From: Candidatus Nanoarchaeia archaeon | GTDB taxonomy: Archaea > Nanobdellota > Nanobdellia > Woesearchaeales > JANQNE01 | NCBI GenBank assembly: GCA_028279725.1 | Contig: JANQNE010000011.1 | Location: 25,872 to 89,871, forward strand | Reading direction: 5' to 3' | DNA length: 64,000 nucleotides | Part shown: in pieces, positions 11,164 to 37,227 of the stretch | Layout of the letters: every line of letters starts with the position of its first letter | Numbering within the stretch: the first letter of the stretch is position 1 | Notes under the pieces: model-generated | Told to the model about the DNA's origin: nothing | The model's input: the letters and a program-made list of their open reading frames with translations, nothing else | Databases searched by the model: none | Made by a program: the position numbers and the translations under genes

Positions 11164-11171
11164 CTTTAGGA

Positions 11172-16539: not shown

Positions 16540-18120
16540 ATGGCAAAAGAGATAATCAATGATCCTTCTAGGACTTTTATGGAGTATAGATTCCTGCCAG
16601 GAGAGACTCCTCGGGATTGTACACCTGATAAGATCTCTTTAAGAACTCCACTGACAAAGTTTACTAAAGAGAGCGGTATGGAGAGTGCTAAAATCATACT
16701 TAATCTTCCTTTTATGTCTGCTGCTATGCAGTCTGTGACAGGGTCTGGACTTGCGATCGCTTTGGCCCAGAACGGTGGCATTGGTGTGCATTATTGCTCA
16801 CAGCCTGTTGAAGATGAAGCAAGAAAGGTTGCTGAAGTTAAGGGTGCTAAGGCTGGATTTGTAAAGCCAAAGACATTGTCTCCTAATGATACTGTTGAAG
16901 ATGCTTTTGAAAAAGCTGTCAAGGAAGGGTATTCGATATATCCTGTAATAGATGAGAATGGAGTATTGTTGGGTTCTGTAAATGTTAATTATCTTAAGAA
17001 CAGGATGGGAGATGAAAAGATATCTGATGTTATGAGGAAATTTATCCCGAAGGGCCTTGATGAGATAACATCTGAGATGAAAGCTAATAATGCGACAGAT
17101 GAAGAGATAATAAAGACAATAAGAGAATATATCACATTTGCTAAAGTGGGTATTGATTTAGAGGAAGCAAACAGGATCGTGGAGGAGAATAACTCTAAGT
17201 TTATCGCTATTGTCGGAGAGGATAATAAATTACATTCTTTAGTATTCAGAAAAGATATCTATAAGCATATAAGCCATCCTAAGGAGCTTATTGATGCTAA
17301 TAAGAGATATATCTGTGCAGCTGCTATCAATACACATGATTACAAAGAAAGAGTTCCTGCTTTAGTGAAAGCTGGAGTTGATATGATAGTTGTAGATTCG
17401 TCAGACGGCTATACTGAGTGGCAGAAAGAGGCTGTCCAGTTCTGCAAAGGAGAGTATCCGACAATACCTGTTATGGGAGGCAATATAATAACTGCTGAAG
17501 GATTCAGATATCTTGCAGATGCAGGTGTTGATGCTGTAAAGGTTGGAATGGGTGGCGGTTCTATATGTATAACTCAAGAACAAAAGGGGACTGGAAGAGG
17601 ACAGGCTGATGTTGTTGAAGAAGTCTGTGCTGAGAGAGATAAATATTATGAAGAAACAGGTGTTTATATTCCAATTATTTCTGATGGAGGCCATAGTTTT
17701 GCGAAAGATATGACTATGGCTTTGGCTTTTGGTGCTGATGCAATAATGTGCGGAAGGATGTTTGTTGGATGTGAGGAAAGCAATGCTCCGTTCCATCCAG
17801 AAGACAGGAAGTTCAAGCAGTATTGGGGAGAAGGACATTCAAGAGCTAAGGCCTGGAGACAGCAAAGATATGGCCAGGTAAGTTTTGATGAAGGGGTTGA
17901 TGGATTTGTTCCTTTTGTCGGAAAACTTAAGGAAAATGTTCTCGATGATATCACAAAGAAGATGATATCAACGATGGTTACGTGCGGATGCAAGAATCTG
18001 GATGAGCTTCATAAGAAAGCAAGAGTTAAGCTTATCTCTGAGCTTTCTATGAGAGAAGGCAAGCCGCATGATATCATATTACCAGAGAACATGACATATA
18101 AAGCCAGAAGGTGGGGTTGA
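16540..18120 (+). CDS. guaB: IMP dehydrogenase with CBS pair
   Basis: PFMSAAMQSVTG, VVDSSDGY, GMGGGSICITQEQKGTGRGQ (catalytic Cys loop), ISDGG. SD GAGGGGGT upstream. Confidence 0.9.
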   Translation: MAKEIINDPSRTFMEYRFLPGETPRDCTPDKISLRTPLTKFTKESGMESAKIILNLPFMSAAMQSVTGSGLAIALAQNGGIGVHYCSQPVEDEARKVAEVKGAKAGFVKPKTLSPNDTVEDAFEKAVKEGYSIYPVIDENGVLLGSVNVNYLKNRMGDEKISDVMRKFIPKGLDEITSEMKANNATDEEIIKTIREYITFAKVGIDLEEANRIVEENNSKFIAIVGEDNKLHSLVFRKDIYKHISHPKELIDANKRYICAAAINTHDYKERVPALVKAGVDMIVVDSSDGYTEWQKEAVQFCKGEYPTIPVMGGNIITAEGFRYLADAGVDAVKVGMGGGSICITQEQKGTGRGQADVVEEVCAERDKYYEETGVYIPIISDGGHSFAKDMTMALAFGADAIMCGRMFVGCEESNAPFHPEDRKFKQYWGEGHSRAKAWRQQRYGQVSFDEGVDGFVPFVGKLKENVLDDITKKMISTMVTCGCKNLDELHKKARVKLISELSMREGKPHDIILPENMTYKARRWG

Positions 18121-18124
18121 TCTT

Positions 18125-19855: not shown

Positions 19856-19865
19856 TGGTGAAAAG

Positions 19866-21703: not shown

Positions 21704-22183
21704 ATGGGAAAGAAAAAACTAGAATCTATGGTTAAGAGTAGTGTTAAGTATCTGATAGAAGGGGCAGTCTTGGCTGCGAAAGAAAGATATGACGGTGCGT
21801 TAGAACATAGGGCAGCTGAATATGCTGTTGAGAGAGAAGGAAAGCTGACAAAGGACCAATATGAATTCTTATTTCATTGCATACATTGGTTTCTATATTC
21901 AAGCCCTGGAGAATATGGACAAAAGAAGAGGCTTGATCGTACAGATGCAAGGAGAAGTGGTGATAAGCAGTATTGGAAATTGTTGAATCCACGTGAGTTC
22001 TTCAATAATGGCGATGGTCCTAGGAAGGATTTTGATAGGACAATGAACAGATTAGCTGAATGTGCGTATAGGCAGGAGAAAGACTGGTTTGACGGAAGAT
22101 ATGCCAGTTATATGGATAAAGGCGGAGAAATCAACAGAACAGAAAGAGTTAAATTGTTAAAATCACTCGATATCAAAGAGTAG
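21704..22183 (+). CDS. hypothetical protein embedded in the purine cluster
   Basis: Start moved to MGKKKLES, which has SD GGGAGTGA and follows the guaA stop by 2 nt. No recognisable motif. Its 3' end overlaps the convergent purM by 21 nt. Confidence 0.5.
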   Translation: MGKKKLESMVKSSVKYLIEGAVLAAKERYDGALEHRAAEYAVEREGKLTKDQYEFLFHCIHWFLYSSPGEYGQKKRLDRTDARRSGDKQYWKLLNPREFFNNGDGPRKDFDRTMNRLAECAYRQEKDWFDGRYASYMDKGGEINRTERVKLLKSLDIKE

Positions 22184-23281
22184 ATCTTCTTTATCTTTTC
22201 CTTTACTTTTTATTTTTATTTTGTTTTCTTCGATGACTTTGCCTGCAATCTGGGCTTTTATGTTGAACTTTGCTGCTTCCTGGATAACTTTTTCTGGCTC
22301 TGGTGTTATTATTGCTAAGCCTTGGCCCATGTTCCATGTCCTGTATGCTTCTTTGTCTGCTATGTTTCCTAGTTCCTGGCAATATTGCATAGCTTTGCAT
22401 GGTTCGAAAAGATTGTCTAGTTCAGCTCCATAACCTGATGGTTTTAGGACTCTGCCAAGTTTTCCTGGCAATCCGCCTCCTGTGATATGAGAGACACCAT
22501 GGATCTTACAGCATCCTTCTGTCTTGAAACCACCATGCATATGAATAACAGCTTTTGAATATATTGTTGAAGGTATGAGGACTAAATTTCCTAATTTTTC
22601 TCCTTCAAATTCAAAATTGTGCCATTCTGGACCATGTTTTTGTTCAAAAACCTTTCTTGTAAGAGATAATCCGTTTGATCTGAAGCCTTTTTCTTCAAGA
22701 ACAACAACAGAATCTCCTAGCTGAACTTCTTTTCCTGTGAAAAGCTTGTTTTTGTTTGCAAACCATGCTATGCTGGAGCACCAATTGTACTTGAACTTTC
22801 CATAACCACCAACACCATCTCCAAGTTCAGCTAATTCTCCGTTGATTACTGCAACATTTGCTGCATCAGCAGCTTTTACATAGCCTTCTGCAAGTTGTTT
22901 TAGCTGTTCTATGTGTGATTCGTTTTCTTTTCCTAAAGAATTAACGTCAAGAACACTTCCGATAAGGACTGGTTCTGCTCCTCTTACTATTGCATCATCA
23001 CAGACCATTGCAAAAAGATCAAAGGCTATTGTCTTATGGTTGTTCATCCTCTGTGCAATCTCTACTTTTGTTCCGACTCCGTCAAAACCTATGCACATAA
23101 GGCTTCCTTCAGGAAGATTTCCGATGTTAATGGCTCTGACTCCTGAGAAATCATCAAATGGAACGATGATCTCTCCGATATTGCCTTTTCTGTTATCAAA
23201 GGTAAGCTTTGCAGCTTTGTACAATATCTTTGATGCATCATCTCCAAGTTCGATGTTAACTCCTGAGTCTTTATAGTCCAT
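22163..23281 (-). CDS. purM: phosphoribosylformylglycinamidine cyclo-ligase (AIR synthetase)
   Basis: DYKDSGVNIELGD, GFDGVGTKVEIA and HITGGG match the PurM pattern. Confidence 0.9.
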   Translation of the reverse strand: MDYKDSGVNIELGDDASKILYKAAKLTFDNRKGNIGEIIVPFDDFSGVRAINIGNLPEGSLMCIGFDGVGTKVEIAQRMNNHKTIAFDLFAMVCDDAIVRGAEPVLIGSVLDVNSLGKENESHIEQLKQLAEGYVKAADAANVAVINGELAELGDGVGGYGKFKYNWCSSIAWFANKNKLFTGKEVQLGDSVVVLEEKGFRSNGLSLTRKVFEQKHGPEWHNFEFEGEKLGNLVLIPSTIYSKAVIHMHGGFKTEGCCKIHGVSHITGGGLPGKLGRVLKPSGYGAELDNLFEPCKAMQYCQELGNIADKEAYRTWNMGQGLAIITPEPEKVIQEAAKFNIKAQIAGKVIEENKIKIKSKGKDKEDLLFDIE

Positions 23282-23282
23282 A

Positions 23283-24782
23283 TTAACCTCTGTCAGCTTT
23301 CTCCAGCTTTTCTATCTTTTCTTTGTTTTTCTTTTTTATCGCTTTCTGGATCTTCTCATTTGAGAGTCCTAAGATCTGTGCTGCATGTCTTGCTGCATTA
23401 GCAGGTCTTAAGATCAATGAGTTAGAGCTTCCTGGTGGATTCTCTAAGCAAGAAAAGCAATCATCTGCATCAGGAGGACAGCTGATCACTGGGTGAACGC
23501 TGTGGAATGATACAACTCCTGAAAGAGCATCTGTTCCTCCTGCAACAGAGATAAATACAACTGGTTCTTCAGACTGGTTGTATTTGTTTATGATCTCTTC
23601 ACATCTTCTTGGTTGTTTGTGTGCTGAGCAGATTCTTATGACTGATGCCAGTCCGTATTTGTTCAACTCTTCCTGGATCTTTTTCAGATGAGGCATGTCA
23701 CTGTCTGATCCTGCTATGATAACTACTAAGCCACCTTTGATGTATCCTTCTTTTCTTAGCTTTTGGATCATATCTGTGCTTACATCTGACTGAGGGAAAT
23801 TGAACTTATTTCCTGTCAGGCTTTCATATAAACTGATATATCTGTAAGCAACTTCTATTACATCTTTGTCTTCAAGTTCTGGCGGCTTTTCTGTTGATCC
23901 GTAAGCACCATATCCTTTTTCAACAAGAACATCTCTAACGAACTGTTTTGACAGCTCTTTTATCTTTAGCTGTGGTTTTTTCTTAAGAAGTTCTGTTACA
24001 TCTTTGTATCTTCCTGTATCCATCTCTTTCTTTATTCCTGTGTATTTGTTGTATTCTTCTATTGTACAGTATCTTGATGAATCTGGTGTGTTTGCTTCGT
24101 CAATCAGGTTGATCTTTCCTTTTTCGTCGATACCAAACTCATACTTTGTGTCAATGAAGATAAATCCTTTCTGTTCTGCCAGTTTTGATGCACGCTTAAA
24201 TAGTCTTATTGAGATATCTCTGAGCTGTGTTGCCAGTTTTTTTCCAAGCTTATCTGCCATGTATTCAAAGCTTACATTAACATCATGATCTCCATCTTCT
24301 GCTTTTGTAGCTGGAGTAAATAATGGTTCTCTAAGCTTTTGGTATCTTAGCAATGAATCTGAAAGCTTTATTCCGCAGAACTCTCTTTTTCCATCTTCGT
24401 AGTCTGCAGCCATGCTTCCCCAAACATATCCTCTTACAACGAATTCGAATGCAATCTTATTCATCTTTTTCTGGACAATAACATTTCCATGAGGGCTTCT
24501 TATGACAGCGTTTGGAACAATATCTGTTGTGTTGTCAAATGCCCATTGTGCGAAGAGGTTTAATGTTAATCCTTTGAAAGGGATCTGCCTGCTAAGTACA
24601 TGGTCAAAGCAAGATATCCTATCTGATGCCACCATCACTATAGGTTTTCCAACTTTTGGTGATGTAAAATGTACTTCTCTTACTTTTCCTGATTTATGTG
24701 TTCCAAGTTCTGGGATGTATCCTGAGAACAGGGTATTGTCTAAGTTTTCTTTGATTATTTTTTTGTATTTTTGTTCTTCCAT
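23283..24782 (-). CDS. purC-purE: bifunctional SAICAR synthetase (N) + class II-like AIR carboxylase PurE (C), PAICS-like order
   Basis: N: GKVREVH...VASDRISCFD...IPFKG. C: IIAGSDSDMPH, CSAHKQP, VAGGTDALSGVV...HPVISCPP, AAQILGLSN (animal PAICS-like strings). Confidence 0.85.
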   Translation of the reverse strand: MEEQKYKKIIKENLDNTLFSGYIPELGTHKSGKVREVHFTSPKVGKPIVMVASDRISCFDHVLSRQIPFKGLTLNLFAQWAFDNTTDIVPNAVIRSPHGNVIVQKKMNKIAFEFVVRGYVWGSMAADYEDGKREFCGIKLSDSLLRYQKLREPLFTPATKAEDGDHDVNVSFEYMADKLGKKLATQLRDISIRLFKRASKLAEQKGFIFIDTKYEFGIDEKGKINLIDEANTPDSSRYCTIEEYNKYTGIKKEMDTGRYKDVTELLKKKPQLKIKELSKQFVRDVLVEKGYGAYGSTEKPPELEDKDVIEVAYRYISLYESLTGNKFNFPQSDVSTDMIQKLRKEGYIKGGLVVIIAGSDSDMPHLKKIQEELNKYGLASVIRICSAHKQPRRCEEIINKYNQSEEPVVFISVAGGTDALSGVVSFHSVHPVISCPPDADDCFSCLENPPGSSNSLILRPANAARHAAQILGLSNEKIQKAIKKKNKEKIEKLEKADRG

Positions 24783-24806
24783 TTTTTCCTCCCCTATCCC
24801 TCTTTT

Positions 24807-25421
24807 TTATTTTTTGACTATAACTTTTCTTCCTTCAACCTTTATCTTTCCTTCTCCAAAAAGCTGTATAGCTTTAGGGTAAAGCTCTTTTTCTAATGTC
24901 TGGACCTTTTCTTTCAATGAATCTACTGTCTCGTCGTTCTCTATGTCTACTGTTCCCTGCATTATTATAGGTCCTGTGTCCATTCCTTCGTCAACAAAGT
25001 GGATTGTGCATCCGCTGACCTTACATCCATAGTTAAGGATGTCTTCATGTACTGACCTGTCCATTCCTGGGAATGAAGGCAGTAGTGAAGGATGAATGTT
25101 CATTATCCTGTCTTTATATTTGTTTGCAAACCATGGGCTAAAAAGACGCATATAGCCTACAAGGACTAAAAGTTCTACTTCTTCCTGGTCTAAGATCTCT
25201 GCAACTCTTTTGTCGTAGCTTTCTCTTGTGTCTTCATCTTTTTTGTACAATTCTATTCTTGTCTTGAATCCCTGGTTTTGTGCTCTTTCGATAGCATAGC
25301 ATTCTTTGTTTGCTAGGACAATCTTTAATTCTGCATCAAGCTCTTTGTTCTTTATAGCATCCATTATAGCCTGAAGATCTGTTCCGTTTGTTGATGCCAT
25401 TACAGCTATTTTTATCGTCAT
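24807..25421 (-). CDS. purN: phosphoribosylglycinamide formyltransferase (folate-dependent)
   Basis: [53 protein letters not shown]. Confidence 0.9.
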
Positions 25422-26287
25422 TTTAGATTATTTTGCATCTTGTATGCAGTTAATGTGTTTTCTAGTAATGATGCTATTGTCATAGGGCCAACTCCACCTG
25501 GAACAGGTGTTATGTGTGAGCATTTGCCTTTTACGTTTTCAAAGTCAACATCGCCTTCAAGATGATATCCTTTTTCTGAGTCATCATCAACTCTGTTAAC
25601 TCCTACATCAATTACTACTGCTCCTTCTTTTACCATATCTGCTGTTACTAGTTTTGGTCTTCCTACTGCTGCAACTAATATATCTGCTGTCTTGCAGATC
25701 TCTGCCATATTTTGTGTTCTTGAATGGCAGATGGTTACTGTTGCGTTTTTTTGGAGTAGTAATGTCGATACTGGTTTTCCTACGATATTGCTTCTTCCTA
25801 TCACAACAGCATGTTTTCCGCTTATGTCTGTTCCAGTTGATTCTATAAGTGTTATTATCCCTTTTGGTGTGCATGAGACAAGGCTATTGTTTCCTGTGAA
25901 TAGATTTCCCATATTTACAGGATGAAATCCATCAACATCTTTCTCTGGGATTATTGTGTTTATGACTTTAGTGTCTGAGATCTGTTTTGGAACAGGCATC
26001 TGGACTAAAATTCCATTGACTGTTTCGTCGTTGTTAAGCTTTTCTATGAGTTTTAGCAGCTCTTCTTCTGGAATGTCTTTATCTAATTCATATTTGAATG
26101 ACTGAATGCCTACTTCTCTGCATTTCACTTCTTTCATGTTGACATATACTTTTGAAGCTGGATTTTCCCCTACTAAAACAACTGCTAATCCTGGCTTTTT
26201 TTCCAGTTGTGAAACTTCTTCTTTGATCTTTTCTCTTATCTCAGCTGAGATCTTGTTTCCGTCTATCAATTCCATTTTATCTATCAC
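25418..26287 (-). CDS. folD: bifunctional methylenetetrahydrofolate dehydrogenase/methenyl-THF cyclohydrolase
   Basis: [42 protein letters not shown]. Confidence 0.9.
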
Positions 26288-27445
26288 CTAAAAATGTGCA
26301 AAGCATCTTTCTGTAGTATAGACCATTGCCATATCATGATCATTTGCTGCTTCAACAACCTCTAGGTCTTTTACAGAACCTCCTGGCTGTATTATTGCAG
26401 TTATACCTTGATTTGCTATAAGGTCAACTGAATCTCTGAAAGGAAAGAATCCATCTGATGAGATGACTGCTCCTTTTAGGGGATTTTCTGACAGTTTTTC
26501 TTTTGATGCTATGACATTTAATGAATCATATTCAATATTTTCCCTATCCATTGCTTTTTGGTATGCTTTTAGGATAGCCTGCTCAACAGCTCCAACTCTT
26601 TCTTGCTGTCCTGAGCCTATTGATAGGGAAACACCATTCTTAACAATAACAACACCATTACTTCTTACACCTAGGTTGATGTACCATGATGTTAGCAGGT
26701 CTTGGAGTTCCTGTATTGAAGGCTCTCTTTTTACTGAAACTTCTTTTTCATCTGTGTTTATTGTCGGATGTGTTATAAGATCTGATGGATCTTTTATCTT
26801 GCATAAGTAAGGTTTTTGGATGATTAATCTTCCTGCACCCATTATTTTGACGTCGAAGAGTCCTGTTGTGTCATCTCCAGCAAATTTTGGAACTTTGTCT
26901 AGGTTTTCGAATGTGAGCAGTCTCATGTTTTTCTTTTCGCTCAGGATATCTTCTGCTTCTTTCTGGAATCCAGGAGCTGCAACAGCTTCAACATAGCTTG
27001 TCATTATCTCTTCTGCTGTTTCTTTGTCAACTTCTCTGTTGAAAACTACTACTGAGCCGAATGCACTTCTTGCATCAGCATCTCTTGCATTTTTGTAGAT
27101 GTCTTTCAATGAGTTGTCCTGATATTGAGTTGCAAACCCCGAAGGTATTATGTGTTTCATAACGCAAACTGAAGGATGATTGAAGAACTTCAGTATTTCC
27201 ATAGCTCTTATTACATCCATTACATTTGTTGCTGATAATCCACCTTTTCCTGATTTTAGAAGCTGAATATTTGTAAGGTCAGCTATTGTTGATCCTTTGA
27301 ACTTGTATTCTGCTCCTGGCTGATTTGGATTTTCTCCATATCTTAGATCCATCTCTTTGACTAATTCTAACGGCAGTTCATCCGGATAGTCTCCAGCATT
27401 TACTGTCTTGTACATATTTTTTAGGTCGCTTAAGTTTTCTCCCAT
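26288..27445 (-). CDS. purH: AICAR formyltransferase domain protein (C-terminal half of PurH as a separate gene)
   Basis: LRYGENPNQPG, the GSGQQERV-type block (IGSGQQERVGAV) and C-terminal ERCFAHF. Confidence 0.85.
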   Translation of the reverse strand: MGENLSDLKNMYKTVNAGDYPDELPLELVKEMDLRYGENPNQPGAEYKFKGSTIADLTNIQLLKSGKGGLSATNVMDVIRAMEILKFFNHPSVCVMKHIIPSGFATQYQDNSLKDIYKNARDADARSAFGSVVVFNREVDKETAEEIMTSYVEAVAAPGFQKEAEDILSEKKNMRLLTFENLDKVPKFAGDDTTGLFDVKIMGAGRLIIQKPYLCKIKDPSDLITHPTINTDEKEVSVKREPSIQELQDLLTSWYINLGVRSNGVVIVKNGVSLSIGSGQQERVGAVEQAILKAYQKAMDRENIEYDSLNVIASKEKLSENPLKGAVISSDGFFPFRDSVDLIANQGITAIIQPGGSVKDLEVVEAANDHDMAMVYTTERCFAHF

Positions 27446-27446
27446 T

Positions 27447-28169
27447 CTAATCCCTCTTTATTTCATAGCATTTCTCAAGATCTGCTATCTCTGTTTTTTG
27501 TATCAGCTTATTGACTGATGCCATATAATCTGTTATCATGCTTGATGCTTTTTTTGCCAAGTTAAGGCGAGTTGCAAGTGAGATCGCTCCGTTGTTTGTG
27601 TCTAGTTCTTCAATTAGTGTTTTGTATTCTGACGGATCTGTTATCAATGCAGTGCTTACTAATGCTTTTCTTGCATTATGACTCATGCTTGGCCCTCCTA
27701 CGTCTATATTTTGCCTTAGGATCTCAAAAGTTGAGTCAGGCTTTGCCATCATCTCATCCAATGGATAAAAGTTGACTATTAATGCATTGATGTAGTTGAT
27801 GTTATGTTCTTTCATGAATTCATCGTCTGATTCTGTATGATTGTGTGCTAAAAGTCCTGCATGTATAACTGGATGTAGTGATTTAACTAATCCTGTCTTC
27901 ATCTCAGGGTATTTTGTAACTTCTGAGACTTCTACAACATTAAGCCCTGCTTCTTTTACTATCTTGTATGTTCCTCCTGTTGATATGAACTGGACATCTG
28001 GGTTTTTTTCTGCTATAAAACCTAAAAGTCCGTTTTCTGGAATTCCTTCTATTATTGGTCCATCTTTTCTTTTGTTGGAAACTAATCCTTCTTTGTTTGT
28101 ACAGCTGACCAATACATGCTTTAGCTGTATAAGGTCATCAACTTTTTTTACAAATTCAATTTCAGCCAT
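27447..28169 (-). CDS. purH: IMP cyclohydrolase, MGS-like domain protein (N-terminal half of PurH as a separate gene)
   Basis: VLVSCTNKEG, FISTGGTYK, GLVKSLHPVIHAGLL, VNFYPL, NIDVGGPSM. The TAG stop is followed after 1 nt by the ATG of the AICARFT gene, in another frame. Confidence 0.8.
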   Translation of the reverse strand: MAEIEFVKKVDDLIQLKHVLVSCTNKEGLVSNKRKDGPIIEGIPENGLLGFIAEKNPDVQFISTGGTYKIVKEAGLNVVEVSEVTKYPEMKTGLVKSLHPVIHAGLLAHNHTESDDEFMKEHNINYINALIVNFYPLDEMMAKPDSTFEILRQNIDVGGPSMSHNARKALVSTALITDPSEYKTLIEELDTNNGAISLATRLNLAKKASSMITDYMASVNKLIQKTEIADLEKCYEIKRD

Positions 28170-28738
28170 TATTTACACCTTATCACTCTTTTTTCGGTAA
28201 TTATCATATCCATCGGGATGTCATAATCTTCTGTTGGTATATTTTTTGTTATCTGTTCTTCAAATGCAAGCCCTATTTTTAGGGAGTTTCTGTCTTTCAG
28301 GAATCTGTCGTAAAAACCTTTTCCGAATCCTATCCTTGCTCCGCTTTGGTCAAAAGCGATGCCTGGGACGAGGACGATGTCCAGGTTTTCTTTGTATTCC
28401 TCTTTTTTGATTGGTTCGAGTACTCCGAAGTTCCCTTCTTTTAGGTCATTGAAGTCAGATAATTTTGATATCTTTATGTTGTTTTCTTCGACAAATGGGA
28501 TGATTACTGTCTTTTGCTGCAGTTGTTCTTTGATTAATTCTATTGTGTTTACCTCACTTTTTAGTGAAAGGTAAGACATCACTATGTTTGCTTTTTTGAA
28601 CTCATCCAGATCTTTTAGATGTTGGATGATTGTCTTGCTTTTTTCTGAGATCTGTTCTTCCGGTATGTTATCTCTTATGGACCTTATGGTGTTTCTGATC
28701 TCTTGTTTGTTTATTCTGTTCATAGTGCGATTCTTCAC
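28169..28738 (-). CDS. 5-formyltetrahydrofolate cyclo-ligase
   Basis: LVPGIAFDQSGARIGFGKGFYDRFL is the MTHFS signature. Confidence 0.8.
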   Translation of the reverse strand: MKNRTMNRINKQEIRNTIRSIRDNIPEEQISEKSKTIIQHLKDLDEFKKANIVMSYLSLKSEVNTIELIKEQLQQKTVIIPFVEENNIKISKLSDFNDLKEGNFGVLEPIKKEEYKENLDIVLVPGIAFDQSGARIGFGKGFYDRFLKDRNSLKIGLAFEEQITKNIPTEDYDIPMDMIITEKRVIRCK

Positions 28739-31404
28739 TTTTGCCTATCAAGCTCTTTTTTTGCAATATCTTTTCTAAAAAACATGCCGTCGAAGTTTAT
28801 GTCATTTATTTTTGTGTATGCTGTATCGACGGCATCTTTAAGGGTTGATCCTAATGTGATTACATTTAATACTCTTCCTCCATTTGTGAGGATCTTTCCG
28901 TTATCTTTCTTTGTTCCAGCGTGAATCACCTGTGCTCCACTTATGTTATCTAAACCTTTTATCTCTTTTCCCTTTTCATATGAACCAGGATAACCTCCTG
29001 ATGCTAGTACTATGCTTACGCAGTGTTTTTCAGACCAGTCTAGTTTCATAGCTCCTAGTTTCTTGTCTATTACTGCGTTCATTACGTCAAGTATATCATT
29101 GTTTAATCTTGGAAGGATAACCTGTGTTTCCGGATCTCCAAATCTGCAGTTGAATTCTAAGATCTTTAGGCCGTCTTTTGTTTTCATAAGTCCGACGTAG
29201 AGGACTCCTTTGTATTCTATGCCTTCTGCTTTTGTTCCAGCTATGAATGGCTTAATTATCTTTTCTTCCATCTCTTTTTCAAGTCCGTCTAATATTGGTG
29301 CTGGTGAGTAAGCTCCCATCCCTCCTGTATTAGGGCCTTTGTCTCCTTCATAGATTGGTTTGTGATCCTGTGAATATACCATTGGCTTGAATGTTTCTGA
29401 GTCTACGAAGACTAAGTAGGACCCTTCTTCACCTACAAGACATTCTTCTACAACTATTGATGAAGATGCATCTCCGAATTTGTTTGCTTTTAGGCATTCT
29501 TCTGCAAACTTTACTGCTTCTTCTACTGTGTTTGCGACAAGAACTCCTTTTCCAGCAGCTAGTCCGTCTGCTTTTACGACAATTGGTGCTCCCTGCTTTT
29601 CGATGTATGCTTTTGCTTTTTCAAAATCAGTGAATTCATCAAATTCAACTGTTGGAAGATTATATTTTTTCATGAATCTTCTTGCAAATGCTTTTGATCC
29701 TTCAAACTGTGATGCTTTTTTGTTAGGGCCGAAGACTCTTATCCCTGCTTTTTCAAGTTCGTCAGCTGCTCCGTTAACTAGCGGAGCTTCTGGACCTATG
29801 ATTGCAAGATCTATCTTCTTTTCTTTTGCAAACTTGACTAAAGCTTCATTATCATTTTGGTCGATATCATGACAGCAAGCTACCTGGCCAATACCTGGAT
29901 TTCCCGGGACTGCGTATAGTTTGTTTAATCTGTCAGATTCTGTGACTTTTAATGCAATAGCATGCTCTCTTCCGCCTGAACCAACTATCATTACGTTAAG
30001 TTTGGTGTCTAATGTTGTCTGCTCTTCTGTTCTCTGGCAACCAAGGCATTGCTGCTGTGATTCTGATACTGGTTCTGGGTATTCTCCTGTTAAACATGCC
30101 ATACATACATCCCTCCTTGTAGCATTCTTGATATTATCAACTGTTGCATATACTAAATTATCTGCTTCAAGATATTCTCTTATCTGTTCTATTGATTTAT
30201 CTGAAGCTATAAGCTCTTTTTTTGTCGCCATGTCTATCCCATAGAAGCATGGGAATTTTATAGGAGGACAAGCAGAAACAAATGTAACTTTTCTAACTCC
30301 TCCATCTTTTAATGTTCTTACTATCCTTTTTGATGTTGTTCCCCTTACAATGCTGTCATCAACTACAGCAACACTCTTGTTTTCAAGTATACTTATTACA
30401 GGCCTTAGTTTTCTTCTTACTGAGTCATGCCTTGTCTTTTGTGATGACATTATGAATGTTCTTTGTATATATTTATCTTTGATCAGACCTTCCCTATATT
30501 TTACAGCAAGATCTTCACTTAATTTTATAGCAGCTGTCCTTCCTGAATCTGGAACTGGGACTACAACATCGATGTCTTTTTGGTCCATCTGCTCGCTCAT
30601 CAGTTTTCCAAGAGCTAATCTTGTCTTGTATACTGATCTGTTCTCTATCATGCTGTTCGGGCTTGCAAAATATATCCATTCAAACATACAATGAGCTTTT
30701 TTCTCCTGTTTTAGGATCTTGCTTTCTATAACCAAGTCTTTTGAGATAAAAACAGCTTCTCCTGGCTCTATATCTCTGACATAATCATGATCAATAACCT
30801 GAAATGCTACAGTTTCTGAAGCAAATATGTATGAATCTCCTCTCTTTCCGAGAACTAAAGGCCTTATGCCTCTTGGATCTCTTATCGCGAATATACCTTT
30901 GTCTGCTATCATTCCAACAATTGAGTAAGCTCCTCTTACCTTATCCATGAAGTGCTTTGCAGCTGCAAAGAAATCTCCATGCTGTTCGTAATGCTCTGCG
31001 AATATTCTTAGAAGAACTTCACCGTCAACAGAGGTTTCAAGATGTTTTCCTTTTTTTTGGAATTCTTCTTTTAGGTCGAAGTAGTTTATTGTGTTTCCGT
31101 TCTGAGCCATAGCAACTTTTGGGTTGATCTTTGTTGTAAGAGGTTGTGCGTCGCACAACATTCCTTTTCCCTGTGTTGCATATCTTGTGTGGCCGATGCC
31201 CATCTTCCCTTGTAATAGGTTTGCGTCTCTTGCCTTGAATACTCTGTGAACAGCATCCATCTCTTTTTTTGTGAAGAATTCGTCTTTTACGTTTGTTACT
31301 ATGCCGCATGCATCCTGGCCTCTATGCTGCAATGACATCAAGCTAGTTACTGCATCCTCAAAAACTTCATCATCTTTTGAAACAATACCAATAATTCCGC
31401 ACAT
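28735..31404 (-). CDS. purF-purD: fusion protein: amidophosphoribosyltransferase PurF (N) + phosphoribosylamine-glycine ligase PurD (C), 889 aa
   Basis: N: MCGIIGIV, HTRYATQG, VDDSIVRGTT, CMACLTGEYP. C: VMIVGSGGREHAIA, VVKADGLAAGKGV, EFNCRFGDPE, TNGGRVL. Confidence 0.9.
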   Translation of the reverse strand: MCGIIGIVSKDDEVFEDAVTSLMSLQHRGQDACGIVTNVKDEFFTKKEMDAVHRVFKARDANLLQGKMGIGHTRYATQGKGMLCDAQPLTTKINPKVAMAQNGNTINYFDLKEEFQKKGKHLETSVDGEVLLRIFAEHYEQHGDFFAAAKHFMDKVRGAYSIVGMIADKGIFAIRDPRGIRPLVLGKRGDSYIFASETVAFQVIDHDYVRDIEPGEAVFISKDLVIESKILKQEKKAHCMFEWIYFASPNSMIENRSVYKTRLALGKLMSEQMDQKDIDVVVPVPDSGRTAAIKLSEDLAVKYREGLIKDKYIQRTFIMSSQKTRHDSVRRKLRPVISILENKSVAVVDDSIVRGTTSKRIVRTLKDGGVRKVTFVSACPPIKFPCFYGIDMATKKELIASDKSIEQIREYLEADNLVYATVDNIKNATRRDVCMACLTGEYPEPVSESQQQCLGCQRTEEQTTLDTKLNVMIVGSGGREHAIALKVTESDRLNKLYAVPGNPGIGQVACCHDIDQNDNEALVKFAKEKKIDLAIIGPEAPLVNGAADELEKAGIRVFGPNKKASQFEGSKAFARRFMKKYNLPTVEFDEFTDFEKAKAYIEKQGAPIVVKADGLAAGKGVLVANTVEEAVKFAEECLKANKFGDASSSIVVEECLVGEEGSYLVFVDSETFKPMVYSQDHKPIYEGDKGPNTGGMGAYSPAPILDGLEKEMEEKIIKPFIAGTKAEGIEYKGVLYVGLMKTKDGLKILEFNCRFGDPETQVILPRLNNDILDVMNAVIDKKLGAMKLDWSEKHCVSIVLASGGYPGSYEKGKEIKGLDNISGAQVIHAGTKKDNGKILTNGGRVLNVITLGSTLKDAVDTAYTKINDINFDGMFFRKDIAKKELDRQK

Positions 31405-31406
31405 TT

Positions 31407-32231
31407 TTATCTATCCTTAAAATAGTCAACAGCATTCTGGAAAATCCTGAAGTTTGAGCTAATTAAATCAGGGATCTCTTTGTTTTCTCTTTTAGCGATC
31501 TCTTTTTTCAGATGGAATTCCGGCTCGCTGATTGAGTATATTGCTCTTTCTGGATGAGGCATCATTCCCATTAGCCTTCCAGTCTTGTCGCAGATAGCTG
31601 CTATATCATTTAAAGCTCCATTAGGGTTGATAGGGTAAACATTTTCTGCATCATCTCCTGCTTCATTGCAGTACGTGAAAACTATCTGGTTGTTCTTTTT
31701 TAATTCTTCAAGTGTGTTTTTATCGCATGTGAATCTTCCTTCTCCATGAGCTATAGGGAGATGTGTCTGTTCTATTCCTTTTGTGAATATACAATTAGAA
31801 TTGTTGTTTTTTATGTTTACCCATAAGCATTCATATCTGTTGCTTGTGTTTGATTCTAATGAGCTGATTCTTTTTCCGTAGTCTCCATCTGTAGCGAATA
31901 ATCCTAAATGGGTCATGACCTGGAATCCGTTGCAGACTCCGAGTATCAATTTTCCTGAGTTTATGAACTCTAAAAGATCTTCCCAAAGGTTGTTTTTTAT
32001 CTTGTTTGCAAAAGCATTTCCTGAACCTGTGTCATCTCCATACGAGAATCCTCCTGGAAACATAATTATATTGTAGTCAGACATCTTTTTCTTTTTTGAG
32101 ATAAGGTCGTTTATGTGGACAATTTCGCATTCAGCTCCTGCTTTTTCAAAAGCATGAGCACTTTCTTTCTCGCAGTTGATCCCATATCCTGACATAATCA
32201 ATACTTTTGGTATCATATTAATAGTCCTCAA
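31407..32231 (-). CDS. purQ: phosphoribosylformylglycinamidine synthase, glutaminase subunit
   Basis: FPGGFSYGDD, GVCNGFQ (catalytic Cys), MMPHPER. Confidence 0.9.
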   Translation of the reverse strand: MRTINMIPKVLIMSGYGINCEKESAHAFEKAGAECEIVHINDLISKKKKMSDYNIIMFPGGFSYGDDTGSGNAFANKIKNNLWEDLLEFINSGKLILGVCNGFQVMTHLGLFATDGDYGKRISSLESNTSNRYECLWVNIKNNNSNCIFTKGIEQTHLPIAHGEGRFTCDKNTLEELKKNNQIVFTYCNEAGDDAENVYPINPNGALNDIAAICDKTGRLMGMMPHPERAIYSISEPEFHLKKEIAKRENKEIPDLISSNFRIFQNAVDYFKDR

Positions 32232-35178
32232 ACCTTTTTTTGTATATTTTTTCTAATTTTTCAATGTCTGTCTTGATTACTTGTTCTTCTTTGTTGTTTA
32301 TTATGAACTCATTGTCTTCTTTTACTGTTCCTATCTTTGCTATGTCGAAGTCGCTCATTGCTTTTACAAATTCATCCTGGTCTTTAGGGTTGATCGTTAC
32401 GATGAATCTGGACTGTGATTCTGAATAGAATATCTTTTCTATTGGCAGGTTATCGTTTGGTGCTTTGCTTAAGTCTGTTTCCGCTCCAAGCTGTCCTGCG
32501 ATTGCCATCTTTGCTAATGTGATCAGTAGTCCGCCTTGATTGACTGGAGCACATGCACTGAACATTCCTTTTTTGTTTAACTGGAACATTGTTTCGTAAA
32601 GTTTTCTTGCTTTTTGTGCATCTACTTTTGGTGACTTTGCTCCGAACTTATCGAATGCTCTATAGAACTCGCTTCCACCACATTCGTCTTTCGTCATTCC
32701 TATGGTGTATATCAGATCTCCCGGAAGCTTGAAGTCCATCGTTATTGTATCTTTTGCATTGTCGATTATGCTTATGCTTGAGATCATCAATGTTGGAAGT
32801 ACTGAAATCTTTATTGAGTTATCTTTTTCGTCAAATCCTTTGAAATCGTTGAACATGCTGTCTTTTCCTGAGATAAATGGTGTTTTGTAGATGGTTGCAT
32901 AATCATAGCATGCTTGTGCTGCGTCTTTTAGCTGGCCCATACGTTCTGGCTCGTTTGAACTGCACCAGCAGAAGTTGTCCATGAGTGCAAGATGGTCTAT
33001 GTTTCCGCCGACAGCAACACAGTTTCTTATTGAAGTGTCTATAGCACATGCTGCCATATCATAGCAGTTTATCTCGCTTAGTCTTGGATAAAGGCATTGT
33101 GACATAACAGCTGCTTTATTGCTGCTGAACAAAGGCTTTACAACTGAAGCTGCTCCGTTGACTCTGCCTTTTCCCTGTAATGGTTTTATGACTGAGTTAT
33201 TCTGAACTTCATGATCATACTGTTTTGATATAAATTCAAAGCTGCAGTTGTTGTGATTTCCCAGGATCTTTTCGAACAGTGCTTTTTGGTTGTCTATTGT
33301 TATTTTTGGCTCTTCTGTCCTGTAAGGATAAGGTTTTGTGATAAGTTTTCTTTTTGGAAGTCCGTCATGTAAGAATTCCATGTCTAAGTTGAATATTTCT
33401 TTTCCGTTGAAATTCACTATAGCTTTTTTTGTGTCGTTGAAATTTCCAATTACTGTTGATTCAACTCCTCTGCTTTCCATAAGGTCCATGAATTCTTTTA
33501 GCTTGTTGTCTGGAACTGATAATGTCATACGTTCCTGTGATTCTGAAATCCATGTTTCCCAAGGCGGAAGTCCTGGATATTTTAGAGGAACTTTTTCTAA
33601 GTCTACTATGAAACCACCACATTCTCTTGCCATCTCTGCAACTGAACAGGATAATCCTCCTGCTCCATTGTCTGTTATGCTATTGTAAAGTTCTTTATCT
33701 CTTGCTTCTTTTACAATTGCATCCGAGAGTTTCTTTTGAGTGATCGGATCTCCTATCTGAACAGCTGTTGCTGGTGAGCCTTCATCCATCTCTTCTGATG
33801 AGAATGTTGCTCCGTGAATACCATCTTTTCCAACTCTTCCGCCGATCATGACAATGTTGTCTCCTGGCTGAGCCTGTTTGTCCTGGCTTGGATTTCCGTT
33901 AGGAAGTTTTCTTGGTAAAAGTCCTACAGTTCCTACGAATATGAGAGGTTTTCCCTTGTAGCAATCGTCGAAGTATACAAATCCTGTTGGTGTTGGAATA
34001 CCTGAGCAGTTTCCTCCTACATTTACTCCATGTATTACTCCATCCATGATCTTTCTTGGTGTTAAAGCTGGGTTTGTCTTGTTCTTTCCTCTGTAAATGA
34101 ATGTCTTGTCTTCTGGTCTTCCTAAGCAGAAGCCGTATTTGTTAACTATTGGAAGTGCGCCCATACCGAAGCCGATAGTGTCTCTGTTAACTCCTACAAT
34201 TCCAGTTATAGCTCCTCCAAATGGATCTAATGCTGAAGGACTATTATGTGTTTCAGCTTTGTCTGTGATCATCCAGTCGTCATTGAATATTATTCCTCCT
34301 GAATTGTCTTTGAATACTGATAAGCAGAAATCTTTATCTCCTAAGTCTTCTCTTACTTTTATTGTCGCTGCTTTGATGAACTTTTTGTATATTCCTTCTT
34401 TTATGTCATCTATCTCTCCTGCAAATAAAGTGTGTTTGCAGTGTTCTGACCATGTTTGTGCGATTGATTCCAGCTCAATATCAGTTGCTTTTCTTCCTTC
34501 TTTTTTGTAATAAGCCTGTATTGCGTGTAAGTAGTCTAAGTCTAAAGCTAAAGGGCCTCTTCTTGTGTTTGTTACAGGATCAGGAATTCCTTTTTTTCCA
34601 AGTTCTGTAAGAATTTCATCACTGACATTCAGATCAATTGCAATTACGTTTTGTTCTTCTTTTATGTTTACTTTTGGAACAATATAATCCATGCCGTTGT
34701 CTTCAGTGTATTGTTCTGCTGATTTGATGTGGAAACGTTCTATTAAAGTGTTGATTAGTTCTTTTGCAATTATTTCTATGTCTTCTTTCTTTAGGTTGTC
34801 TGATTTTATTAAGATCAGTTTAGAAGTGAATACTTTGTTTCTTCCAATGTTGATCTTGAATAGGTCGTTTATGATTTCTGTAGTTGTGTTTGCTACATTG
34901 TCTGTAACTCCTGGCAAGAATCCCAGTTCTAATGCCCAGCTAAACTCTTTTTTTGATGGTGAGTTGATCCTTGGAGTTTCTACGATAGGATTGTGTAATG
35001 CGTTAGCTATTGCTGTTATTTGTTCTGCTGAGAAATCATACTGGATAGTGTATACTTTGCTTACTTCAATAGAGGTTTCGAAGCCCAGCGAGAACAGCTT
35101 TTTCTCTAATATTTTGGCTTCAGAGCCCTTCTCCTTGGAATCTATAGAAATCCTAAATATCTGTCCATTTTCTTGCAT
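32218..35178 (-). CDS. purL: phosphoribosylformylglycinamidine synthase II with an N-terminal PurS-like extension (no glutaminase domain)
   Basis: Start placed at MQENGQIF, with SD AGGGGGTTGATC just upstream; the track ORF extends to 35214. ETHNSPSALDPFGGA, PurL PurM-like repeats, and an extra N-terminal domain of roughly 200 aa. Confidence 0.85.
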   Translation of the reverse strand: MQENGQIFRISIDSKEKGSEAKILEKKLFSLGFETSIEVSKVYTIQYDFSAEQITAIANALHNPIVETPRINSPSKKEFSWALELGFLPGVTDNVANTTTEIINDLFKINIGRNKVFTSKLILIKSDNLKKEDIEIIAKELINTLIERFHIKSAEQYTEDNGMDYIVPKVNIKEEQNVIAIDLNVSDEILTELGKKGIPDPVTNTRRGPLALDLDYLHAIQAYYKKEGRKATDIELESIAQTWSEHCKHTLFAGEIDDIKEGIYKKFIKAATIKVREDLGDKDFCLSVFKDNSGGIIFNDDWMITDKAETHNSPSALDPFGGAITGIVGVNRDTIGFGMGALPIVNKYGFCLGRPEDKTFIYRGKNKTNPALTPRKIMDGVIHGVNVGGNCSGIPTPTGFVYFDDCYKGKPLIFVGTVGLLPRKLPNGNPSQDKQAQPGDNIVMIGGRVGKDGIHGATFSSEEMDEGSPATAVQIGDPITQKKLSDAIVKEARDKELYNSITDNGAGGLSCSVAEMARECGGFIVDLEKVPLKYPGLPPWETWISESQERMTLSVPDNKLKEFMDLMESRGVESTVIGNFNDTKKAIVNFNGKEIFNLDMEFLHDGLPKRKLITKPYPYRTEEPKITIDNQKALFEKILGNHNNCSFEFISKQYDHEVQNNSVIKPLQGKGRVNGAASVVKPLFSSNKAAVMSQCLYPRLSEINCYDMAACAIDTSIRNCVAVGGNIDHLALMDNFCWCSSNEPERMGQLKDAAQACYDYATIYKTPFISGKDSMFNDFKGFDEKDNSIKISVLPTLMISSISIIDNAKDTITMDFKLPGDLIYTIGMTKDECGGSEFYRAFDKFGAKSPKVDAQKARKLYETMFQLNKKGMFSACAPVNQGGLLITLAKMAIAGQLGAETDLSKAPNDNLPIEKIFYSESQSRFIVTINPKDQDEFVKAMSDFDIAKIGTVKEDNEFIINNKEEQVIKTDIEKLEKIYKKRFEDY

Positions 35179-35269
35179 GATCAACCCCCTATAGTTAGCT
35201 GAAAAATGACTCATATATAAATATTATGGCTACCAGCCAGTACTAAAGATATACTCAAGAATATAGTTT

Positions 35270-35704
35270 TTACCCTCTAAGTGAAGGATGTAATGGGTAA
35301 GAAGGTGTTATGTATGTGTCTCCTCTTGATTCTACTTTTATCAATGTGTTATCAGCTACCCTAAAATCTAACGGGTCTTTGATTGCATTATCCCTGGCTT
35401 CGAATTTTCCAAGATAACATTCTTGAACTGCTTGTTTTAAGTGCGGTTCACAAGCAAAGATTTCAGCATAAGGTGTTGCTTCCATGATTGCCTTTGCAAC
35501 ATCAAGACTTGAGCTTCCTTCTTTTACAATGTTTGCCAGATCAACCATATCATAGAGCTTAATTGTTCCTGCTGGTTCTTTTTCACACTTCTTACATTCT
35601 CCATAAGGAAGATGCATAGTCTCGGTCAACCTATTTCTATCCATCGCTTTTCTAAGTGGAATGGATTTTTCCAAACCTTTTATGAATTCTCCTAAATCTG
35701 ACAT
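35270..35704 (-). CDS. hypothetical protein between purL and purB
   Basis: 144-aa ORF with CKKC and several Cys. No recognisable family. Confidence 0.5.
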   Translation of the reverse strand: MSDLGEFIKGLEKSIPLRKAMDRNRLTETMHLPYGECKKCEKEPAGTIKLYDMVDLANIVKEGSSSLDVAKAIMEATPYAEIFACEPHLKQAVQECYLGKFEARDNAIKDPLDFRVADNTLIKVESRGDTYITPSYPLHPSLRG

Positions 35705-35787
35705 AGAACAAAAGGATTACTAAGTTGTATATAAATATTATTGTTTTTGAGTATTCTAGAATGGTAACGTTACGTTAATCGTAAGAA

Positions 35788-37227
35788 CTAAACATTAATT
35801 GATGTGTTTGATTTTCCGACCAATTCTTTGTATTTTTCCAGAACTGGTTTGACTTCTTTCTGGATGAATTCTTCTGTCTGTTCTTTTGCTGCTCCTGTGA
35901 ACCTTACTGGGTTGTCTAATAGTGAGTTTAGGTAGTTTTCATCTACTGGTATTGACTGGTCTTCTGCTAATCTTTTGAATAAGTCATTCGGTTTTCCTTC
36001 TAGTTTTACTGATTTTGCTGCATCTACTGAATGTTTCTTTATTATTTCGTGCATCTCTTGTCTGTCATGTCCTTGTTTTGCCAATTCCATCAGTATAACT
36101 TCTGTTGACATGAACGGCAGTTCTGCATCAAGATGTTTTTTGATCTGAGCTGGATAGACAACCATGCCGTCTGTTATGTTTTGATATAGTTTTAAGATTG
36201 CGTTTGCTAGAAGGAAAGACTGAGGTATACTGATCCTTCTTATGGATGAATCATCTAGTGTTCTTTCAAACCACTGGTTAGCGTGAATATGTGAGAAATC
36301 TATTTGAAGATTGATGAGTTTTCTTGCCAATGCAGTCATACGTTCAGAACGCATTGGGTTCCTTTTGTATGCCATAGCTGAAGATCCTGTCTGTGATTTT
36401 GCAAATGGCTCTTCCATTATCTTAAGATTTGACATAAGTCTCATGTCAACTGCGAATTTATGCGCTGATTCTGCGATTCCTGACAGAATTTTTGCAACTA
36501 TAGTGTCGAATTTTCTTGTGTAAGTCTGTCCTGTAGTTGGATATGATTCTTCAAAACCTAATTTTTTGCTTACTAAGCTGTCTAATTGCTTAACTTTTTC
36601 ATAATTGTCGTTGAAAAGTTCTGTGTATGATGCCTGAGTTCCTACTGTTCCTTTTGCTCCTCTTGCTTTTAATTCTATCTGTTCTAATTGTTTTAGGTCT
36701 AGTAAAAGATCTTGAATGTAAAGTGTGATTCTTTTTCCTATGGTTGTCGGCTGTGCTGGCTGGTAATGTGTGTATCCTAGTGTTGCTAATGATTTGTTTT
36801 CTTCAGCAAATTTGGATAAGTTGTTTATTGTGTTTATTAATCCTGCTTTTATGATCTTCAGTGCTTCTCTTATTTGGATTAGATCTGTGTTGCAGCAGAC
36901 GAACTGAGAAGTTGCTCCTAAATGGATTATTCCTTTTGCTTTTGGGCAGTGTGTTCCGTATTCAAACACATGAGCCATGACGTCGTGTCTGATTTCTTTT
37001 TCTTTTTCTTTTGCGATGTCATAGTTGATTGTGTTCTGAGCAGCTTTTAGCTCTTCGATCATCTCTGGAGTGATCTGGGAGAGTCCTAGTTCCATCTGAG
37101 ATTCAGCTAAAGCTATCCAGCACTTTCTCCATGTTGAGAACTTGAAATTATCTGAGAATATCTGCTGCATCTCTTTGTCAGTATATCTTCCTACTAACGG
37201 ATCCTGGTAAACTTCGTGATTGCTCAT
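35788..37227 (-). CDS. purB: adenylosuccinate lyase
   Basis: GATSQFV, TGSSAMAYKRNPMRSE (fumarate-lyase signature). 479 aa. Confidence 0.9.
   Translation of the reverse strand: MSNHEVYQDPLVGRYTDKEMQQIFSDNFKFSTWRKCWIALAESQMELGLSQITPEMIEELKAAQNTINYDIAKEKEKEIRHDVMAHVFEYGTHCPKAKGIIHLGATSQFVCCNTDLIQIREALKIIKAGLINTINNLSKFAEENKSLATLGYTHYQPAQPTTIGKRITLYIQDLLLDLKQLEQIELKARGAKGTVGTQASYTELFNDNYEKVKQLDSLVSKKLGFEESYPTTGQTYTRKFDTIVAKILSGIAESAHKFAVDMRLMSNLKIMEEPFAKSQTGSSAMAYKRNPMRSERMTALARKLINLQIDFSHIHANQWFERTLDDSSIRRISIPQSFLLANAILKLYQNITDGMVVYPAQIKKHLDAELPFMSTEVILMELAKQGHDRQEMHEIIKKHSVDAAKSVKLEGKPNDLFKRLAEDQSIPVDENYLNSLLDNPVRFTGAAKEQTEEFIQKEVKPVLEKYKELVGKSNTSINV

Follow-up and report, generated by a model that had tools for sequence, protein, structure and literature searches.

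How an archaeon of the Woesearchaeales could convert 5-aminoimidazole ribonucleotide (AIR) to its carboxylated form (CAIR), when its purine gene cluster appears complete except for purK, is the question raised by a 64,000-nucleotide stretch from a Candidatus Nanoarchaeia archaeon (assembly GCA_028279725.1, contig JANQNE010000011.1, positions 25,872 to 89,871), hereafter the window. One gene of this cluster, purCE, encodes a fusion of PurC, the synthetase of succinylaminoimidazole-carboxamide ribonucleotide (SAICAR), with PurE, which forms CAIR. We consider it likely that the product of purCE is bifunctional and carries out steps 6 and 7 of the pathway, that its PurE half uses CO2 directly and without PurK, and that the fusion arose independently of the animal enzyme PAICS and has been exchanged with protists. 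The gene and its parts, all on the minus strand, are as follows.

23283..24782 (-): purCE, bifunctional PurC-PurE, 499 amino acids plus stop codon; open reading frame (ORF) with an ATG start and two Pfam domains
23778..24782 (-): PurC half, residues 1-335, long-form SAICAR synthetase (Pfam PF01259, PDB matches, Foldseek, motifs)
23730..23777 (-): inter-domain linker, residues 336-351 (TDMIQKLRKEGYIKGG), mostly helical (AlphaFold2 model)
23286..23729 (-): PurE half, residues 352-499, class II-like AIR carboxylase domain of the 'GGTD' sub-clade (Pfam PF00731, motifs, fold)
23697..23711 (-): P-loop GSDSD, residues 358-362, phosphate/ribose-binding (alignment to human and Escherichia coli)
23610..23627 (-): 40s loop SAHKQP, residues 386-391, with catalytic His388 and class II-type Lys389 (alignment)
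23517..23543 (-): 70s loop AGGTDALSG, residues 414-422, clade-specific form of the class II loop (alignment)
23472..23492 (-): PVISCPP motif, residues 431-437, class II-type (motif table; the class I form is PV(L/I)(G/A)VP)

Pfam recognises SAICAR_synt (PF01259) at residues 30-267 of the product (E=1.6e-51; 175.7 bits, cut-off 20) and AIRC (PF00731) at residues 353-489 (E=6.2e-30; 104.1 bits, cut-off 30), so that PurC is N-terminal and PurE C-terminal; this is the order of PAICS, as an earlier note made from the sequence alone had stated. In an AlphaFold2 model built with 41 homologues (pLDDT 90.4, pTM 0.85), a helix occupies residues 334-344 (pLDDT >90); residue 352 opens the first strand of PurE. 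An assembly artefact or frameshift joining two genes was considered and ruled out: more than 100 full-length homologues keep the same uninterrupted two-domain architecture, and the fusion is therefore real. The gene sits 24 nt 3' of purN and 1 nt 5' of purM, with a GGAGG Shine-Dalgarno-like motif inside the 24-nt spacer, and its GC content is in no way unusual compared with that of its neighbours.

The kind of PurE present is central to the question, and several comparisons point to class II. Against the PDB, the best match of the PurE half is the class II enzyme of Treponema denticola (TdPurE; 3.5e-24, 88.8 bits), followed by human PAICS (1e-21, 80.9 bits), whereas E. coli class I PurE is matched at 6e-5 with 26-27 bits; class I structures as a whole score 23-58 bits, against 81-89 for class II. 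The PurE half stays below the cut-off of the class I equivalog TIGR01162 (99.1 vs 149.6 bits), and the fold of the AlphaFold2 model is closest to TdPurE (Foldseek; TMt 0.85-0.88, root-mean-square deviation (rmsd) 2.1 A), with TMt 0.72-0.77 for class I. The columns that discriminate the classes were derived empirically from an alignment of 198 PurE domains, by setting 7 class I sequences against 10 of class II, either validated or of the PAICS type. The PurE of the window has no residue specific to class I in this alignment (E. coli R46, A74, H75, P77, A81, S103, P115 and V116); it is of class II at K389, S425 and D441 and agrees with the biochemically validated TdPurE at A419, S421 and G422. 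At the level of motifs, it has SAHK and not SAHR, A-L-S-G and not A-H-L-P-G, and SCPP and not GVP; the only coincidence with class I in this test, G422, is a residue that TdPurE has as well.

The catalytic core common to both classes is intact (G358, S359, S361, D362, S386, A387, H388, A414, G415 and L420). The GSDSD loop aligns with human G273-D277 and E. coli G15-D19, His388 with human His303 and E. coli His45, and Lys389 with human Lys304 and class I Arg46; the active-site membership of the human PAICS residues and the catalytic role of the histidine are taken from the literature (PMC9376930). By these sequence comparisons the PurE half is class II-like, and class II chemistry, with CO2 rather than N5-carboxyaminoimidazole ribonucleotide (N5-CAIR) as substrate, seems well supported. 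The earlier note had assigned the domain to class II, partly from the strings SAHKQP, HPVISCPP and AAQILGLSN, and the PDB ranking, the motifs, the TdPurE-like fold, the TIGR01162 score and the aligned class I positions all agree with it. The three strings are present, the latter two at residues 430-437 and 467-475, and the corresponding strings of human PAICS are SAHKGP, YPVISCPP and AAQIFGLSN. AAQILGLSN is, however, poorly kept within its own clade, where positions 467 and 470 agree in about one third of the 94 members, and its likeness to the human string is therefore in part coincidental.

Where the assignment of the note has to be modified is in its wording of the enzyme as animal-type. 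Its class II-like character stands, but the domain belongs to a separate sub-clade whose 70s loop differs from that of animals, and its closest relatives among eukaryotes are Myzozoa and diplonemids, not animals: in the same columns, the window has AGGTDALSG, human and Bombyx PAICS AGRSNGLGP, TdPurE AGRSNALSG and E. coli AGGAAHLPG. The AGGTDALSG loop is found in all 94 members of the clade and forms part of a group signature (AGSDSD, SAHKQP, AGGTDALSG and NPPGSSN) described as invariant in the 94 sequences; counted by position, the GSDSD residues are kept in 91-94 of the 94 and lysine at position 389 in 92. All our trees are simple neighbour-joining (NJ) trees with Kimura distances and bootstraps, among which those of full-length proteins and of PurC are preferred over that of PurE. 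The PurE tree is relied upon for three features only, namely the class I clade and the animal PAICS clade, each with 100% bootstrap, and a moderate split of the GGTD group.

This sub-clade is not restricted to fusions. Standalone PurE genes of the GGTD type (ca. 165-172 amino acids) occur in purine clusters of metagenome-assembled genomes (MAGs) of Spirochaetaceae (loci L069, L071, L072, L074-L076, L078 and L080 of our set) and also at L061, L066, L077 and L079, the groups as a whole being spirochaete, Cloacimonadota, Gemmatimonadota and deltaproteobacterial MAGs. Their presence in several bacterial groups implies that class II-like PurE is far more widespread in prokaryotes than the literature consulted suggests. 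Tandem PurE-PurE' proteins of 289-369 amino acids were observed as well (proteins P0134-P0136, P0139, P0142, P0150 and P0151), in which the first copy carries GGTDALSG, whereas SAHK and the 70s loop are gone from the degenerate second one; a similar PurE-PurE' is known from Methanobacteria (Brown et al. 2011, PMC3261824).

As for purK itself, its absence from the cluster, pointed out in the earlier note, was borne out by a tblastn search of the window with E. coli PurK, which gave no match (best E 2.3). Among the window ORFs of at least 150 amino acids, the ATP-grasp proteins recognised by Pfam are RimK-type, Ddl-type and PurD only, with no PurK. A comparison of purK co-occurrence across 79 related loci extended this result: within 10 kb on either side of ca. 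30 loci with the GGTD fusion no PurK was found, and the only ATP-grasp matches there are PurT. Weak PurK matches at L008 and L010 were rejected, since these are PurT proteins with a PurT_C domain. Relatives with a class I-type PurE, on the other hand, carry PurK adjacent or fused (L029, L059). L029, from Nanoarchaeota, encodes a PurQ-PurC-PurK fusion followed by a class I PurE, L059 (actinobacterial) has the order purC-purE(I)-purK, and the chlamydial L031 has a PurC-PurK fusion. L029 is thus an alternative, PurK-dependent solution around the same long-form PurC lineage; its region at 9080-15703 (MAG contig JAUYMA010000010.1) comprises PurQ-PurC-PurK of 1021, a tandem class I PurE of 317 and a PurM-PurB protein of 873 amino acids. 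In the Chlamydiae MAGs, besides PurC-PurK (L031), a PurC-PurE(class I) protein of 685 amino acids was seen (L023).

The genes around purCE form a single long operon, the remaining parts of which are as follows.

22163..23281 (-): purM (AIR synthetase), which makes the PurE substrate AIR; Pfam AIRS and AIRS_C; directly downstream of purCE
24807..37227 (-): upstream part of the operon, with purN, folD, purH1, purH2, 5-formyl-tetrahydrofolate (5-formyl-THF) cyclo-ligase, purF-purD fusion, purQ, purL, an orphan ORF of 144 amino acids and purB (Pfam)

In order of transcription, the operon (22163-37227, minus strand) reads purB, purL, purQ, purF-purD, 5-formyl-THF cyclo-ligase, purH2, purH1, folD, purN, purCE and purM. 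All ten steps to inosine monophosphate (IMP) are covered in ca. 15 kb, purCE being the only PurE in the window and PurK the only conventional enzyme missing. A divergent unit on the plus strand (16540-21701) carries IMP dehydrogenase (IMPDH), purA and guaA, so that the de novo purine pathway through IMPDH, guaA and purA takes up ca. 21 kb of this Woesearchaeota genome. The same gene order is found at L002, L003, L007, L012, L014 and L021, and the adjacency of purCE and purM is kept in related loci.

Several features of these neighbours deserve mention on their own account. The presence of folD and 5-formyl-THF cyclo-ligase within the operon implies folate-dependent PurN and PurH1, and purH is divided into separate purH2 and purH1 genes. 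The PurF-PurD fusion (28735-31404, minus strand; 889 amino acids) joins amidophosphoribosyltransferase to glycinamide ribonucleotide synthetase, steps 1 and 2; the two are fused also at L003, L008, L012 and L021 and are separate genes at L002, L007 and L036. The adenylosuccinate synthetase (18125-19855, plus strand) has 576 amino acids, ca. 150 residues beyond the span of the Pfam model, which implies large insertions. Two ORFs were considered as hidden substitutes for PurK or PurS: the orphan one of 144 amino acids (35270-35704, minus strand), which lies in the 574 bp separating purL from purB, and one of 318 amino acids further upstream. Both were rejected, the former because Pfam does not recognise it and none of the 79 loci has a counterpart, the latter because its only match is a sub-threshold one to a peptidase.

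The PurC half is of the long form, the ca. 300-residue type of yeast and mycobacteria, and not of the ca. 237-residue E. coli type, in agreement with the earlier note. Its best PDB matches are Mycobacterium abscessus PurC (3r9r; 8e-41) and the yeast enzyme (1a48; 3e-36), both including the C-terminal extension, of which residues 276-328 of the purCE product align with residues 241-294 of 3r9r. The fold agrees (Foldseek TMt 0.82-0.84 to 3r9r, 6yvq and 1a48), and the BLASTP match is far better to the PurC of M. abscessus (1.9e-45) than to that of E. coli (6.6e-7). The nucleotide- and CAIR-binding motifs of the PurC family are GKVR, DRxSxFD, DTKYEFG and TPDSSR; in the PurC half they read GKVR, DRISCFD, DTKYEFG and TPDSSR and are invariant across 41 homologues. 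The score stays below the trusted cut-offs of the NCBIfam PurC equivalogs (NF009251, 272.4 vs 371; NF010568, 239.2 vs 251). The PurC half represents a divergent lineage, for which its motifs, its gene context and the match to Pfam suggest a SAICAR synthetase function.

This PurC lineage is centred on DPANN archaea and has been fused repeatedly, to class II PurE, class I PurE, PurK or PurQ. The PurC of the window is 54% identical to long-form PurCs with other fusion partners, and at 46-54% identity its relatives are standalone proteins (L034, L035) or joined to PurK (L029, L031) or to class I PurE (L023). At this level of identity the lineage also contributes to triple fusions that include PurQ or PurN (P0079 at L020, P0057 and P0065/67).

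The fusion is independent of that of animal PAICS, because its PurC half is of the long form while the PurC of PAICS groups with the short form of E. coli (bootstrap 100 in the PurC tree, ca. 35% identity). BLASTP finds no match between the PurC of the window and PAICS-type PurC, a phmmer search of the PDB matches PAICS over the PurE half only, and the PAICS clade of the PurE tree contains no sequence of the GGTD type. Both halves therefore stem from sub-families other than those of PAICS, which makes the two fusions a case of convergence. Independence had been put forward as a possibility in the earlier note, which had proposed separate phylogenies of the two halves, and both trees separate the halves encoded in the window from those of PAICS.

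In fact, the joining of PurC and PurE is evidently a recurrent event. Unfused, adjacent purC and purE(GGTD) pairs are found at L026 and L046 and likely represent a precursor of the fusion or the outcome of its fission. Pairs or fusions in the reversed order, purE-purC, occur at L065, L066, L068 and L077 and in P0204 and P0242, and other fusions of a long-form PurC to a canonical class II PurE are present in Ca. Tiddalikarchaeum and in one Myxococcota MAG.

The GGTD-type fusion itself has a peculiar distribution. It was found at 56-85% identity in MAGs of Woesearchaeota, Nanoarchaeota, Aenigmatarchaeota and Nanohaloarchaea, mostly with the gene order of the window, and it is also carried by a closed Woesearchaeal chromosome (CP070803.1); the nearest named relatives of the purCE product and of the prolyl-tRNA synthetase of the window are from Woesearchaeota. 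Full-length eukaryotic copies, at ca. 50% identity, are present in Vitrella, Perkinsus, many dinoflagellates, Amoebophrya, the gregarine Selenidium and eight diplonemid species. They include P0120, P0429, P0454, P0121 and P0138, all of the GGTD-type long-PurC/PurE kind, and in Amoebophrya a tandem (PurC-PurE)x2 protein of 1068 amino acids. In the full-length NJ tree all the eukaryotic copies, from Myzozoa and diplonemids, form one clade with a bootstrap of 98, and the main DPANN groups lie outside it; there is weak support for where this clade stands with respect to the outgroup and to a divergent subgroup of Woesearchaeota (L022/L024). A single origin followed by transfer between domains, in either direction, and by transfer between eukaryotes is the likely course of events. 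Database labels of these proteins are generic ('AIR carboxylase family protein', 'SAICAR synthetase'), and a literature search found no paper describing the archaeal and protist PurC-PurE fusion or the GGTD loop.

Several observations speak against the explanation favoured here. The search for purK in this organism spans the 64 kb of the window, on a contig whose length is at least 240 kb, and in archaea the absence of purK is not diagnostic, many of them having a PurE that is class I-like and lacking purK (Brown et al. 2011, PMC3261824); moreover, a class I PurE can use N5-CAIR formed non-enzymatically at high CO2 (PMC3261824). In the 70s loop, Gly416, Thr417 and Asp418 replace human Arg331, Ser332 and Asn333, which are active-site positions, and in this the protein is unlike every validated class II enzyme. 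Human Arg331 contacts the substrate phosphate (PMC9376930), and a glycine at its position is the class I state. The GGTD group is split from all other PurEs at 66% bootstrap only, in a simple NJ tree of ca. 150 residues (156 columns) that does not resolve the deep PurE nodes, and a search of the literature found no assay of any GGTD-type PurE. Finally, the domain packing predicted for purCE in a monomer model does not superpose on that of PAICS 6yb8 (rmsd ca. 23 A), so that a PAICS-like quaternary structure is an assumption. It could be the case that the PurE half is a class I-type N5-CAIR mutase, its substrate being formed non-enzymatically in a CO2-rich anoxic habitat, as is thought to happen in many archaea with PurE and without purK (PMC3261824), or by a purK located outside the window. 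We regard this as improbable, since every class I-specific residue other than that glycine is missing, including the equivalents of E. coli Arg46 and His75, and class I models, sequences and structures are clearly worse matches than class II ones. In addition, class I relatives keep purK in the cluster, which none of the ca. 30 fusion loci does, and aerobic marine protists, for which high CO2 is not a given, rely on the same enzyme.

The altered loop could also indicate that the GGTD-type PurE is a third functional kind, with another handling of CO2 or bicarbonate, a dual class I and class II activity, or another mode of phosphate binding. Its own invariant signature lines the active site, the arginine is missing, and the group is set apart from canonical class II as well as from class I. 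However, the common catalytic core is conserved, Thr417 and Asp418 are conservative replacements of serine and asparagine, and the pathway context needs only that AIR be converted to CAIR. The Arg331 position, moreover, is variable among class II-like representatives (R, K, L, M or G), so that the arginine is no absolute requirement in the wider family; we think that a third kind has little probability. A related and broader scenario, which we find unlikely though somewhat less so, is that a mechanistically distinct GGTD-type PurE was joined to a long-form PurC a single time, in a prokaryote, and that the resulting two-step module moved between DPANN and two protist lineages unrelated to each other, Myzozoa and Diplonemea; if this were true, dinoflagellates, perkinsids, chromerids and diplonemids would make purines with an archaeal-type enzyme unlike those of animals, fungi and plants. 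As to a single shared origin of purCE and PAICS, inherited or transferred, the common domain order, the class II-like PurE of both and the appearance of PAICS as the top full-length structural match would favour it, but the PurC halves belong to different sub-families with no detectable match between them, the PurE halves to different clades, and several other independent arrangements are known (reversed order, PurC-PurK, PurC-PurE(I)). From these sequence relationships a shared origin appears effectively refuted, and we give it almost no chance.

With purCE read as a PurK-independent carboxylase joined to a synthetase, the two steps would proceed as follows. PurM, encoded directly downstream, would supply AIR, and the C-terminal PurE would convert it to CAIR, most likely by direct addition of CO2, a reaction in which His388 would act as general base and neither PurK nor ATP would be needed. 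From CAIR, aspartate and ATP, the long-form PurC at the N-terminus would then form SAICAR. The fusion would fix the stoichiometry of PurC and PurE at 1:1, and the ATP-driven PurC step would pull forward the thermodynamically weak, ATP-independent carboxylation. By analogy with PAICS and with all PurE structures solved so far, an octameric PurE core with the PurC domains outside is expected, and channelling between the domains may take place. The fusion would have originated from an adjacent purC-purE gene pair in a prokaryotic lineage and would have been exchanged with protists.

Some features of the window unrelated to purine carboxylation can be recorded here. It encodes a class I lysyl-tRNA synthetase and a diphthamide-synthase domain; a 697-residue protein (14331-16424, plus strand) combines a GATase_7 and Asn_synthase module with a C-terminal Diphthami_syn_2, an unusual association. 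A tRNA at 59835-59936 (plus strand) scores 51.6 bits with Rfam and is not found by ARAGORN; with 102 nt for a model of 71 positions, it may be an intron-containing archaeal tRNA. Together with the Woesearchaeal relatives of the prolyl-tRNA synthetase and of the fusion, the lysyl-tRNA synthetase, the diphthamide-synthase domain and this tRNA mark the host as a Woesearchaeote, a member of the DPANN archaea.

Bifunctional PurC-PurE enzymes are already known as a kind, and so is class II PurE in prokaryotes (Treponema, Archaeoglobus). The present results indicate that evolution arrived at the design of PAICS, a PurC together with a PurK-independent PurE, on more than one occasion and from different parts, and this repeated invention suggests a selective advantage in coupling a weak CO2 fixation to the ATP-driven step that follows. 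They also reveal a large class II-like sub-family, that of the GGTD-type PurE, in which the active-site loop is altered and the arginine that serves the substrate phosphate in human PAICS is gone. The loop can be regarded as a natural experiment on the determinants of class I and class II chemistry, a difference that matters because it is exploited in antimicrobial design. AIR carboxylase was held to be almost exclusively eukaryotic in a 2014 survey (PMC4177761), a view that the GGTD-type fusion contradicts. Moreover, DPANN archaea have usually been reported without purine synthesis, and a complete and compact purine operon is now present in a lineage usually called purine-auxotrophic. The probable transfer between domains, linking DPANN archaea with Myzozoa and diplonemids, has a further implication, since these groups include the parasites Perkinsus and Amoebophrya, whose enzyme differs from that of animal hosts.

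Among the systems already described, the closest in design is animal PAICS (human 2h31/6yb8, Bombyx 4ja0), whose structures are the top full-length Foldseek matches of the purCE model. The two share both activities and the order of PurC followed by PurE; in each the PurE is class II-like, has SAHK and xCPP and, by inference in the case of purCE, does not need PurK. They differ in the PurC, which is of the short form in PAICS and of the long form, with ca. 335 residues, in purCE, and in the 70s loop, with the PurE halves falling in separate clades. TdPurE (3rg8/3rgg), the validated bacterial class II enzyme, is the best match of the PurE half in sequence (ca. 36% identity) and in fold, and has in common with it SAHK, the A-L-S-G of the 70s loop and xCPP; it is, however, a standalone protein of 159 amino acids in which the loop opens with GRSN instead of GGTD. 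The PurE of Archaeoglobus (Brown et al. 2011, PMC3261824) is likewise archaeal, class II by sequence and encoded in a genome without purK, but by its description it is standalone, eukaryote-derived and not fused to PurC (PMC3261824). The long-form SAICAR synthetases, yeast Ade1 (1a48) and M. abscessus PurC (3r9r/6yvq), are the best matches of the PurC half, C-terminal extension included, and differ from purCE in being monofunctional. Fungal and plant Ade2, a PurK-PurE class I fusion built around the step from AIR to CAIR, differs in its parts: its partners are PurK and a class I PurE, its chemistry is ATP-dependent, and PurC is encoded separately.

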